64,000 bases of DNA from Eledone cirrhosa. Lineage: Eukaryota. The notes under the pieces are model-generated. The model was not told the DNA's origin, searched no databases, and was given only the letters and a program-made list of their open reading frames with translations. The stretch spans positions 39,990,001 to 40,054,000 of the forward strand of contig OZ024746.1 in NCBI GenBank assembly GCA_964016885.1, written 5' to 3'. Made by a program: the position numbers and the translations under genes. Of this stretch, positions 33,826 through 64,000 are shown one piece after another. Positions within the stretch are counted from its first letter, which is position 1; each line of letters starts with the position of its first letter.

Positions 33826-36366
33826 TCGATTATACATTGAATTGGGTGCACCAACATGCAAAGAATCGGACAACAATATCTTACTGACACTTTAATTTTA
33901 TCACCTAATATGTGGTATGGAGAGAGAAATTAATACAAATAGGATATGAACAGAAAAATATATATCTATAATAATAGCATATCGACAAAGTATTAAAACC
34001 AGTTTTTTTACTGGCTTGAAATCTCTCAACGCCGTCAAAGACTACCGTTTTAGATTACAAAAGTGTCTAACGTGTTGTTTATAGCGAGAATACTTGCACC
34101 GAGGTGCACAGATAACAAGTATAAATAGGGAAATGAGCAGTCGTTATTTATGAAGACGGAAGACAAGACAAGCAGTGTTTATTGGAATGAATAACAGTTT
34201 GTCATCCTCTCTAGTTTTAAAGTTAATACTGATAAAGGTATCATAAACTCTTGACTGACAATAAGATTGACTGTCTGATGATCTGATGTCATTTCTAACA
34301 TTAGTCATTGTTGCAGTAAGATGCCGGAAATGAACAGCTATCCATTCATACACATGCATGCACTTGTGTATGTGAGTATATACATTTTTTTTCTTTAAAT
34401 TTTGGTCGAGTGCGATCATTGGCGACGTCGTGCTGCTATATTTAGCACAACTGCCAGCCCCAGCTAGCCTGCCACCGTTGTTGTCCTGTTGATTAATTAG
34501 CACGAGACAACAAAAGTTACTTCAAGGGGCGACAATTTTTTCTTTTTGTTGCATTTTTGTTTGCTTGTTTATTTTTTGTTTATTATTATTTTTTTTTTTT
34601 TGTCTTATGTGTGGGTGGGGTAGCTAAAGAACAGAGTATAGGTAAACATAAAGACAGGAAAGTTTCGAGATCTAGATTACTTATTTCCAATATCAGATAT
34701 TATCACACTTATTTACCTGCATATTTGTCAGAGTTTTCATTTCCTTATATTTGTCATAAATAAGATTTTTGCCATCTTCTCTGAAAGGGCAGCTGTAACG
34801 AACTTATTGTTGTTTTTTCATTGCTACTAAAAGTATCAAACGGCTTAATATTTCCCTTCGTTCACTTCTTGTCATGTATAAAAGTCTCTATCATAATCTA
34901 ATTTTATATATGTTACTATAATATTTTAATGATTTCCTCTCACTGAAGTTGACACTAAATGTCGTACGAATAGTTTTTGAGGCATAATCGATAAAAATCA
35001 ATAAAGTTTCATAATCATTCTGTCTTATTGCTTCAGTAGAAATATTCAACAACAACAACAACAGCAAAAACAGGAACAACAACAAAATAAACAGAGATAA
35101 AAAGCTGACCGCTACTTTCCATTCCTGGATTCGAAGATATTGTCAATTAGTCCGGGTAAGAAAAGCACAGAATATTGAAATTGAGCAGCAATGTAATAAT
35201 GTGAAGTTGTGAAGTGTGTCTACAAGGCAGTCGATCTCTGTCAGAATCGGAGTATAAATAAAACAGATACGAGGGGAGACAACAACTGATAGGTTAATGT
35301 TTGACAGAGATAGTGAGAGAGGTGTCGTTTTTTAACGATGACCAGACACCAAAATCAAACATAAGTATACAAAAAGATGTGGCAGGCAGTAAAGTAATTA
35401 TTGAAGAAGTGAAAGTTATTGCTTGGTGATTATTTTTATATAAACAATGAGAGATAAGAGATACCAATAAAATAAATAATAACAATCCAACGGGTGAACG
35501 GTGAGGAAAACAAAGAAACAGAAATACGTACACAGATATAAAGAAAAAATACACAATCACAAGTCACACACATACATACATACATGCATACATACATTCA
35601 TATGTATATACATACAGACAGACATACATACATATGTATTTACATACATACATGCATACACCCACACATATACATACATATGTATATACATACATACATA
35701 CATGCATACATACGTACATATATACATATATACATACATAAATACATACATATATACACGTAGGTACATACATGTGCATGTGTGAGTGTGTGCGATATGA
35801 GAGGGGGGAAGGTGGTGGAAAAGAAAGATCAAAAGAATAAAAAGTATGAAAGAACAGGAAAAAGGGTGATAACAAGGGATAGAAATTTTAACACATCTTA
35901 CTAGATAAATAAAAGGGTCGCGACTCAGTAGATAGATAGAGAGAGGGGGGTACCGGCGCTGAGAGAGAGAAGGAGAGGAAAAGAGAGAAAGGAGAGAGAG
36001 ATGTTGTACAGATAGAGAGAGAGAGTGGGGAGATCGTGTGTAGATAGATAGATAGGTAGATAGATATATAGATAGATAGATAGATAGATAGATAGATAGA
36101 TATATTTCTTTTATTTGCCACTAGGGCATCAAAAGTGGGACAAGTACAAAGGGGGGAGTTTACACAAAAAGGCGTCCTCAATAAGGAGGAGGCAATAACA
36201 AAATATAAAAATAAAATAAGATATAACAAAAAATAAAATTTTTAACAAAATCCTCAATAGAGAGGAGGCGCCTTGGGGGGTCGCACACACCCCCGAAAAA
36301 AGTGTGCAACCCTTCTCCTCAGGAGCACAGAGAAGGGGTGCTCCCTTGGTCTTTCATCTTCCTCAC

Positions 36367-39300
36367 CTATAGTCTGATGTAGAGTGAAGGCCCATTCACA
36401 CGGGCCATTCTCGCCACTTTCACCCATCTTTCATAGAAACGGCTGGGGTGCAGCACCTCTCTCTCCATCCTGATCCTTCTTCCGAAATGATATCGGAAGA
36501 AACGGACCAGTTGTTGGCCAGAGAGAAAGGTGCCCGACCTCAGTCCTTTCAGACGCGTCCACCATACAACCTCTTTCGCCATGGCTATTACGCACAGAAA
36601 CACCGCCTCTGCTTCATCTTTGAAGGGGGGAGGCGGCTTGATCATTACAATAGACTCGGTGGTCAACCGGATCGGTCCCACCCTTGACAGCAGTTGTTCG
36701 ACATAGCCCCACAGATCGGCTACGCCCGAGCAGTGTACTAATGCGTGTGCAACGGTTTCCTCGTCGCACACGCATCTGGGACAGATCTTTTTGGCGGGGT
36801 CCCTACCCGGGCGCCCGTGTCTGTAGAGCCTTTCTCGAACGGGTAAAGCCCCTCGGTAGCACTGCCAGGCCAGGGACTTCTGGAAGTTGTCCATAGGTCC
36901 CGGGCTGAATGTCCTACCGAACAGGCTGGCCAGTTCGTCCTCCTCCATGTCTAGGGCTTCTCCGAGGGCGTCGTCGCACCTGCTGCGTACTAGCCCTCTA
37001 TAGAATGTTGCGGTGGAGTCTCCACTGATAACCGGATCCGCCTGCCAGAGGGCGGTGAGCGCCTGGGCACACTCAGTGTGCCAGGCGCCCAGTTTTCTCG
37101 GTCTTTGCTTGACCCAGGATTGCAGCTCGGTGAGTGAGACGAGTCTGGGAAAGGTTCGTCTCACAAACGAGGCCCACACCGGTTGTCCGGTGAGGAATAC
37201 GTAGAGGTGCCGTAGCCTTAATGCGTGTTTACGCATCATTAGCCACGGCATCCCCAGCCCTCCTTTCGAAGGGTGTTGACAGCAGATGGATCTCCTCACC
37301 ATAGGAGCCCGCCTCTTCCAAAGGAATTGGAAGAGCGCGCGCTCCATCTTGGTGAGGGTTTCCCTTGGGCAGGGCACTACGGTCAGGCGGTAGTAGATGA
37401 CGGACGCTATGTAGGTGTTCGCCACCTCCGCCCGGCCTTTCAGGGATAGTTTGCAACTGGCCCACTTCTGGGTCAGTGCAAACACCCTGTTCGTAACCTC
37501 CGCCCAGTTTTTCTCCACCTGGAGGTCCGGTCCGAACCAGACCCCGAGCAACTTCACCGGGCCCTCCGTCCAGCGTCCGACGACGCTATCGGAGGGCATC
37601 GGTCTGCCCCTCCACGTGCCGAGTTGCAAACCGATCGACTTGTCCCGGTTCAGCTTAGCCCCTGTGAACTTTTCGTACTCCTCCAGTAAGGTGCCGACCG
37701 CCTCGATTTCGGAGGCCGTCGACACCATTACTGTCACGTCATCGGCGTAGGCCGACACCGCTTTCCGCAATCCCGGTTCCAAAGGGATGCCCTGCAACAA
37801 CTCCAACTTCCGCAGTAGTGGCTCGAGAGTCAACACATACAGAAGGGAGGAGAGAGGGCACCCTTGTCGGATGGACCGCGCGATTTTGAACGGCTCCGAG
37901 AGGTAGCCGTTCACCTTGACCCTAGAGCAGATGCGGCTGCTGTGCATAGCAGTGATCCAGCCCCTGAAAACGGGTCCGAAGCCTGCCGCCGCTAGCACCG
38001 CATCCAGGTAACCATGGTCGACCCTATCGAACGCCTTAGATTGATCCAAGTTGATCAGAGCCCCACCAAAGCCGGGTTCGTTCCCAACCCTCTCTATGAT
38101 GTATCGCATGAGGTGGAGGTTGTCATGGATGGACCTGGACGGGATAGCGCATGTCTGCGCATCTCCCACCAGGTTGCCCACGACAAGCGCCAACCTCTTT
38201 GCTAGCACCTTGGCCAAAATCTGTAACTCTGTATTTAGCAGTGTTATGGGCCTGAAGTTACTTATTTCGTCCCCCTTGTTCTCGTCCTTCCTCACTAGCG
38301 TGACTACGCCCTTGGTCACAGTACAGGGAATTCTCCCGTTCTGTTGCCAGTTGCAGTAGACCGCCTCGAGGAGATCGGGGAACAAGTCCGGCATAGCTAG
38401 ATATAATTCGTAAGGAAGACCATCGAGACCCGGGGATTTGCGTTTGCCGCATTGGCTCAGCACGTCCTCTATCTCAGCGGCCGAAATCGGCTCTTCGCAG
38501 GACTTCGCCTCCCTGTCCGAGAGGCGCGGCAGGCCGTCGAGGTATGGACCGAAGTCCACGTTCCCAACCGGCTCCCCGCCCCTCCCGAACAGTCGGGCAA
38601 AGTGCCTTTGAAAGGCCTCACACATCTGCTTAGGCTCAAGAATCGCCCGTCCATCCAGGTCTCGCAAAGACCGGATGGTGGATTTAGTTCCACTGTTGGC
38701 CTCTGTCACGCGGGCCCAGCTAACAGCTTTGGTCCCCTCGTTCCCTAGAGCACGTATTTTACTTCGGACAACGCAGCCTTCGTGCTTCGCGTCGAAAAAC
38801 TGGCTCAAAGCCGTTCTCGACGCTAGCACTCTGGCCACGTCGCCGCTTCTAATTGCCTCTTCTACTCTATCTATTAGCTCCCTTTCCTTCCTATTCCTAT
38901 CCGCAGCTAGAACCTTACTAAATTCTATCGAGACTACTCTAATCTCTCTCTTTAGAGATACCCACCACCTGCTGTTGACGATCGCTCCAGTCAACCGTTC
39001 CTTAACTAACGTACTAATCCGATTCCTGTAGGCTCTACTTGCCGGCAAGGACAAGTTGAGCTTCCAGTAACCGGGGCCCTGTCTATGAGTTCTGTCAAGG
39101 TTGACCATGCAGGTCACTAATTTGTGGTCTGAATAGCCAACAATGCGCATTTTTGGACAACTTAAAAAGTCCTTATCCTTAATTCTAACTAAGAACCTAT
39201 CTAGGTACGACCTAGATGATCCGCTACGATTTGCCCAAGTCCAGGTTGGCGCAGTCGGAAAATCTAGTCGATATCTATCGGCCAGGTCAAATCGACCGAT

Positions 39301-63799: not shown

Positions 63800-64000
63800 T
63801 AAATTTCTTTATTAGCCACAAGGGCACAAAAGAAAGGGACAAATACAAATGGGGAGTTTACATACAGGTATATGAAAATAAAACTATTAATAAAATAACA
63901 AATAACAATTGATATCCCCAATAGGGGGAGGTGTTACACAGGGGTTGTACACACCCCGAAAAAGTGTACAACCCTCATCTCCAGGAGCACCAAGAGTGAG
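63800..64000 (-). mobile_element. Tx1-clade copy G, 3' end (runs off the window), near-identical to D
   Basis: 63665-64000 matches 47340-47670. Confidence 0.9.

Follow-up and report, generated by a model that had tools for sequence, protein, structure and literature searches.

A 64-kb stretch of the 3.0-Gb genome of Eledone cirrhosa (contig OZ024746.1, positions 39,990,001 to 40,054,000; hereafter the window) carries seven copies of a long interspersed nuclear element (LINE) whose family inserts into a tetranucleotide repeat that reads (TATC)n on the strand of the element and (GATA)n on the other. Copies join the repeat at a fixed 3' junction and in one orientation, duplicate their target, carry no poly(A), are numerous across the genome and in many cases retain open reading frames (ORFs). 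Insertion by this family is almost certainly site-specific.

The copies, named A to G, all lie on the minus strand and were delimited by self-comparison of the window together with reading of that strand. Copy A (36103-41825) is a full-length element of 5723 nt in which ORF1 and ORF2 are open; a (TATC)n run forms its 3' flank (36041-36102), and a (TATC)12 spacer (41826-41871) joins its 5' end to the 3' end of copy B (41872-46121), a member of a separate subfamily (~82% identical to A) that is truncated in ORF1 and has an internal deletion of ~170 nt at 43243. Copies B and C are separated by (TATC)5 (46122-46144), and copy C (46145-47283; 1139 nt, truncated in ORF2) is separated from copy D (47475-48027; ~553 nt) by (TATC)16 and ~115 nt of TC-rich sequence (47284-47474). 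A further (TATC)16 run at the truncated 5' end of D (48028-48095) marks the upstream edge of this stack. Copy E (51168-51216) is a 3'-end remnant of ~48 nt followed by (TATC)n, and copy F (53934-57332) is an A-like element (94%) of 3.4 kb, truncated in the endonuclease domain, with (TATG)20 and then TACCTATCTA at its 5' flank and (TATC)3 at its 3' flank. The D-like copy G (96.6%) begins with its 3' end at 63802-64000, runs past the window end and reaches ~40056739 on the contig, ~2.7 kb outside the window, where its 5' junction lies in (TATC)11.

All seven 3' ends read AATAAA(A)GAAA, 2 nt and TATCTAT, and none has poly(A), which agrees with the first-pass annotation of this DNA, where AATAAA plus a few nt was said to be followed by (TATC)n without poly(A). 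Copies B, C, D, E, F and G are each 5'-truncated, with differing breakpoints. Identity over the end of ORF2 among A, B, C, D and F ranges from 75 to 97%, so that several subfamilies are present, and the earlier count of seven minus-strand copies of several subfamilies was borne out by the self-comparison. The same annotation had described A to D as separated solely by (GATA)n, which holds between A and B and between B and C but not between C and D, where the TC-rich sequence intervenes; its claim that truncated 5' ends abut the repeat is right for B, C, D and G, which adjoin (TATC)n; E and F adjoin only a short TCTATCT or TACCTATCTA. The shared minus strand was rejected as a signal, because the seven copies represent no more than four distinct loci (p = 1/8), and copies on the plus strand are found at a distance of 5-10 kb outside the window.

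A tandem or segmental duplication of a single insertion is very improbable as the source of the stack. Copies D and G do have 393 nt in common at 97.7% identity, including ~130 nt of 3' flank; however, A to D differ from one another by 8-25% and have different breakpoints, and C-type ends 93-98% identical to C are found on other chromosomes with flanks of their own. Duplication was rejected on these grounds as the origin of A to C. The flank common to D and G (47284-47672 and 63608-64000, including the element end) is TC-rich; a diverged version follows A (35900-36040), and part of it precedes D. It is possibly a 3' transduction or a local duplication, and a 13-nt piece of it matched one of 420 loci, namely its own place in the window.

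Target junctions across the genome

Ends were counted genome-wide with exact patterns, an A-type end being the exact 26-nt 3' end of A, and 40 evenly spaced 10-kb stretches (400 kb) served as background. The A-type 3' end occurs 1959 times in the genome, and 1514 of these occurrences (77%) have TATCTAT after 2 nt, as compared with a background rate of 3.8e-4 per position (0.04%). A degenerate family pattern returned 20,992 ends, a lower bound that takes in sister families with other targets, and 15,314 of these are followed by TAT[AC]TAT (background 1.9%). Chance falls far short of explaining this 3'-junction pattern. On contig C1, the first 30 A-type ends comprise 21 that continue into TATCTAT, 8 into TATATAT and 1 into TATCTGT, with none that leads into poly(A). 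Background counts are 14,951 for TATATAT and 301 for TATCTAT, the former being ~50 times commoner, and the per-site preference for TATCTAT over TATATAT is ~130-fold; the target is better given as TAT(C>A)TAT than as strict (GATA)n.

These junctions also bear on whether (TATC)n is simply a tail encoded by the element, as in many RTE elements, with unspecific insertion and stacks formed by chance. The 3' junction nearly always starts TATCTAT, as such a tail would, and octopus RTE elements with microsatellite 3' untranslated regions (UTRs) are described in the accessible text of PMC9115989. However, copies that landed in (TA)n run directly into it with TATC absent (8 of the 30 ends above), which argues that the repeat is a target and not an obligatory encoded tail; moreover, truncated 5' ends adjoin extended TATC runs, with a duplicate of the 3' flank on the 5' side. 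An encoded tail was rejected for these three reasons, and we give it hardly any credence.

The first-pass annotation had named random 5' flanks in other copies as the result that would speak against it, and the flanks are not random. Exact A-type 5' ends number 355, and the 30 that come first on C1 in order of position were read: 28 have two or more TATC units in the adjacent 30 nt, 21 agree with (TATC)n in at least 10 of the final 12 nt, and 11 were marked as immediately following the 3' end of another family copy. For comparison, one sequence type in more than 20% of flanks is the level that the text of PMC4494074 uses for target specificity; here the share is 77% for A-type 3' flanks, and for 5' flanks it is 28 of 30. 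Truncated copies behave alike, since in a position-ordered set all nine truncated junctions in view adjoin a TATC or TA repeat or a duplicate of the 3' flank.

Target-site duplications, which can be read at imperfect repeats, are 7-20 bp long with a median of 12, microhomology included (19 calls). At L203-L205 three successive copies reuse one site, with duplications of 11 nt and of 18-20 nt; these stacked copies and the visible duplications uphold the earlier proposal that each insertion leaves a target for the next. In a separate arrangement at L344 and L313-L314 (C1:2225700-2236400), a TATC-family copy lies inside an older copy on the opposite strand.

The reverse relation, how often a (TATC)n run holds a copy, was also measured. 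Starts of (TATC)4 in one phase number 27,717 genome-wide. On C1, the first 30 of these include 22 in contact, by BLAST, with a family copy of the same orientation, and at 2 more a divergent 5' end follows by reading, 5.5-5.7 kb from a family 3' end, for a total of 24 of 30 runs or 15 of 21 clusters, although the sample spans 15 Mb and the phase chosen is biased towards 3' ends of elements. The 400-kb background contains four runs of at least four units, of which one adjoins a clear copy and two adjoin very short 3'-end remnants. With many targets already beside a copy, stacking needs no self-attraction of the elements. Very short remnants (~9-14 nt) are seen in TATC runs at L222:4040-4090 and L236:9287-9365, which suggests that at many (GATA)n loci there are insertions of a size that escapes annotation. 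A separate short repeat that ends in (TATC)n is present at L322, L340 and L263, in the last of which an A copy landed, and this repeat may contribute to the supply of targets.

Coding capacity and classification

ORF2 of copy A (36367-39804, minus strand; 1145 aa) encodes an apurinic/apyrimidinic endonuclease (APE), a reverse transcriptase and a zf-RVT domain, identified by Pfam (PF03372, 4e-8; PF00078, 5e-26; PF13966, 4e-5, under the cut-off) and by motifs; the catalytic motifs of the endonuclease (LNARG, E39, GDWN, YLDR and SDHK) and of the reverse transcriptase (YADD) are intact. By motif reading, ORF1 (39829-41607, minus strand; 592 aa) has a single C-x2-C-x4-H-x4-C knuckle at aa 321-334, which scores below threshold against Pfam zf-CCHC (E = 0.051; 14.1 bits against a cut-off of 20.8). 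A CCHC zinc knuckle in ORF1 is a feature of the Tx1 clade. The best match of the family profile in the PDB is human L1 ORF2p (E = 3e-114), with R2 at 2.5e-36, and the features of the L1 group are present: two ORFs, an N-terminal APE endonuclease and a reverse transcriptase in ORF2, and no long terminal repeats. Truncation at the 5' end is widespread: genome-wide, exact A-type ends number 1959 on the 3' side but 355 on the 5' side. The element is an L1-group non-LTR retrotransposon, that is, an APE-type LINE.

The nearest named homologue of ORF2 is a protein of Argonauta hians (67% identity), and the next named relatives are from turtle and teleost (31-43%); these have in common the motif LDQxKAFDRV, which we take to be a mark of Tx1. 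Membership in the Tx1 clade is likely. An Atlas search with ORF2 returned only generic endonuclease-reverse transcriptase clusters, and a metagenome scan of 80 loci (best-segment identity 23-43%) yielded no close relatives. Near-identical pieces were present in three of four sequencing runs at a depth of 2-10, where carry-over is possible and no informative end junction was contained. A search of sequencing runs listed no RNA data set with the element, a result that carries no weight as to expression.

Several sequence features accompany the ORFs. The 5' UTRs of several subfamilies have GACRYRYG at ~+10 and GTAAG at ~+35-45 (41785-41790, minus strand, in A; also L273, L305 and L306), and in copy A the sequence TTTTGTAG lies ~65 nt after GTAAG (41720-41730, minus strand), an arrangement that resembles a short intron. 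A splice-donor-like AG-GTAAGT or AG-GTAGGT overlaps the ORF1 stop in A (39825-39835), in B (45385-45395; both minus strand) and in L437, a member of the (ATT)n family described below, 24-50 nt before the ORF2 ATG. Elsewhere in the window are near-perfect palindromic (fold-back) elements beside (TA)n (11980-12351, 13373-14743, 16907-17299, 20862-21768, 50440-51027 and 52424-52700), a 46-bp minisatellite of 22 copies with 94% matches (31016-32045) and an abundant short interspersed repeat of ~190 nt in tandem clusters (48710-50100, 60460-61660 and others).

Endonuclease and RNA in target choice

Examination of 20 regions around family 3' ends that lack TAT[AC]TAT revealed sister families with other targets. 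One, with 327 ends and an ORF2 ~84% identical to that of A, stops at an identical base of a minisatellite with its 3' end in all of 30 cases, and the 72-bp period of this minisatellite was confirmed. Its full-length 5' ends lie in the 72-bp repeat as well, in 10 cases in one set and in at least 13 of 14 in another, and the truncated copy L390 shows a 9-bp duplication. The sampled places of this family cluster, for example near the ends of C1-C3, and six tandem copies are found at C1:4222000-4260000. The other, with 1159 ends and an ORF2 60-70% identical to that of A, has ATT-rich 3' flanks in 29 of 30 cases, judged by eye; only 6 of 16 5' calls match (ATT)n, so that part of its repeat may be a tail. 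At several (ATT)n-family copies the genome's abundant short interspersed repeat follows. In a tree of the C-terminal region of ORF2, the TATC and 72-bp families form one clade (100/99), and the ATT families and the Argonauta protein lie outside it; the inner order of the tree is unsupported, and a long-branch warning applies to the distant rows.

We consider it likely that target choice in the TATC family is led by the endonuclease, which would nick the GATA strand and free an end that primes reverse transcription. The start of the duplications, read with standard target-primed reverse transcription, would place the first nick at GATA^GATA, and on the same basis the second would fall ~12 nt (7-20) away. 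The RNA probably extends slightly beyond AATAAA, by a few bases of the repeat, and its UAUC bases would pair with the primer; such pairing would explain the exact 3' junction without poly(A). Full-length RNAs may start inside the upstream repeat and could thereby bring extra TATC units, as a few copies suggest. Insertion would split one run into two and duplicate the site, with the result that later copies of any subfamily could land adjacent, in head-to-tail stacks like D-C-B-A. A precedent is the endonuclease of Tx1L, which according to the accessible text of PMC1950540 nicks almost only its own target. The non-random 5' flanks, the (TA)n 3' ends and the duplications support the sequence-specific insertion that the first-pass annotation had proposed; that the specificity is set by the endonuclease is what we infer.

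A different division of labour, in which the RNA leads, is unlikely but deserves weight. Here a relaxed endonuclease would nick many AT-rich sites, only nicks that pair with the target-derived end of the transcript would prime, and the landing site of a founder would set each switch of target. The endonuclease hairpin, an element that tunes specificity in L1 in the accessible text of PMC1950540, is near-identical across the three targets (TWANRSGSSRS, TWTNRSGTSRS and TWTNRIGSSRS in the three groups), and the 72-bp family falls, with its ~84% identity to A, within the TATC clade. Full-length copies of the 72-bp family carry target sequence of standard type at their 5' ends, as seen at L358 and L431, where the surrounding unit diverges but the ~25 nt immediately preceding the element match the standard one. 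Annealing between target and RNA improves insertion by R2Ol (PMC6795142, accessible text), and an L1 chimera is reported to integrate at just a subset of nicked sites (PMC1950540, likewise). However, pairing within a repeat should slip by whole units, and the 3' junction is at one fixed step even in (TA)n, with no clear extra TATC units seen; the three endonucleases differ at 22-38% of residues outside the hairpin; and the Tx1L endonuclease is sequence-specific in vitro in what could be consulted of PMC1950540. A wider proposal, which we hold to be doubtful, is that the lineage retargets through the ends of its RNA and not through its nuclease: transcripts would start and end in the landing site, so that a copy in a new repeat would found a family aimed there (TATC, 72-bp minisatellite, ATT) with the endonuclease hairpin almost unchanged, and the GATA family, duplicating and importing TATC units, would have seeded or occupied most (GATA)n microsatellites.

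It should be noted that several observations weigh against endonuclease-led, site-specific insertion as set out above. The likeness of the hairpins is one, and RNA pairing fits it at least equally well. Among 96 automated calls of truncated junctions, a biased set in that 60 of its input loci were picked on TATC, 58 fit (TATC)n in at least 10 of 12 nt (background 0.21%), which favours the repeat as target, and a further 3 fit (TA)n, but 35 fit neither; many of these either are preceded by element sequence (internal deletions or mis-calls) or carry TATCTGT as a short duplicated site. In one truncated copy, L022, the 5' end adjoins (GATA)n that runs in the opposite orientation. At L044, L050/L051 and L056, where a copy lies in a minisatellite or in (TA)n, 4-18 nt of TATC-type sequence between duplication and element tentatively suggest transcripts that start in the upstream repeat; however, in a comparison of 39 full-length copies, repeat runs at the 5' end (median 16 nt) did not exceed those at the 3' end (median 24 nt; p = 0.12), and L261 has no extra TATC at its full-length 5' end, so that carriage of the repeat at the 5' end is tentative and confined to few cases. 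Lastly, these 39 copies, which are those other than A with the A 5' end and whose main alignments to A are 95.6-100% identical, are best hits and overstate youth. Both ORFs are open in 21 of the 39, and ORF2 in 27; the family appears to be young, abundant and recently active.

Comparison with known systems

Microsatellite-targeting Tx1 elements are known, and a (GATA)n target was not found in print: the literature searches returned no GATA- or TATC-targeting LINE, although one could be present in Repbase or Dfam, in the 2004 paper on Kibi and Koshi, or in the figure and supplements of PMC4494074, and we judge the odds that Repbase already contains such a family to be roughly one in four. The text of PMC4494074 does not contain GATA, and its Fig. 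3 and supplements list further targets. In Octopus vulgaris, 13 recently active L1-Tx1 families with 421 insertions are described in the main text of PMC13282606, and these may include relatives; insertion targets or GATA are not mentioned in the texts of PMC13282606 and of PMC8967140, which treats L1-Tx1 elements of coleoids, and insertion targets are not discussed in the accessible text of PMC9115989.

The family described here adds (GATA)n to the targets of microsatellite-specific LINEs, and its intact, near-identical copies suit assays. One genome here offers three close families, the sisters with ORF2 ~84% and 60-70% identical to that of A, each with a target of its own; they form a natural set for the question of endonuclease against RNA-target pairing, which bears on site-specific tools for gene insertion. 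If most GATA runs sit at LINE ends, the flanks of GATA markers in this host would frequently be repetitive, and the origin of the host's GATA repeats would be tied to one retrotransposon.

The nearest likeness by target is to the Tx1 elements of pyrimidine-rich microsatellites, which are APE-type LINEs as well: Kibi on (TC)n and Koshi on (TTC)n in teleosts, and crocodilian families on (TTCC)n/(TTTC)n (PMC4494074, text). Dissimilar from Kibi and Koshi, the present family uses (TATC)n with (TA)n as second choice, lives in an invertebrate host and has ~2x10^4 ends. Its target, TAT(C/A)TAT, is not the (TC)n, (TTC)n or (TTYC)n of the Kibi/Koshi lineage; the family works like these elements and is not filed as a member. 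Xenopus Tx1L, which inserts in Tx1D, has a sequence-specific APE, as the present family probably does, and the 72-bp sister family likewise inserts at one base of its repeat; however, the main family here targets a simple repeat and not a transposon (PMC4494074 and PMC1950540, accessible texts). SART1 and TRAS of the R1 clade, on (TTAGG)n, are also LINEs of a simple repeat with fixed orientation, but SART1 needs a long poly(A) tail, which the copies here do not have (PMC7265360, accessible text). Togen, on (TG)n, again inserts into a simple repeat in fixed orientation; in the accessible text of PMC4640811, however, it is discussed with the NeSL/HERO group, which has a restriction-like endonuclease, unlike the APE of the family in E. 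cirrhosa.

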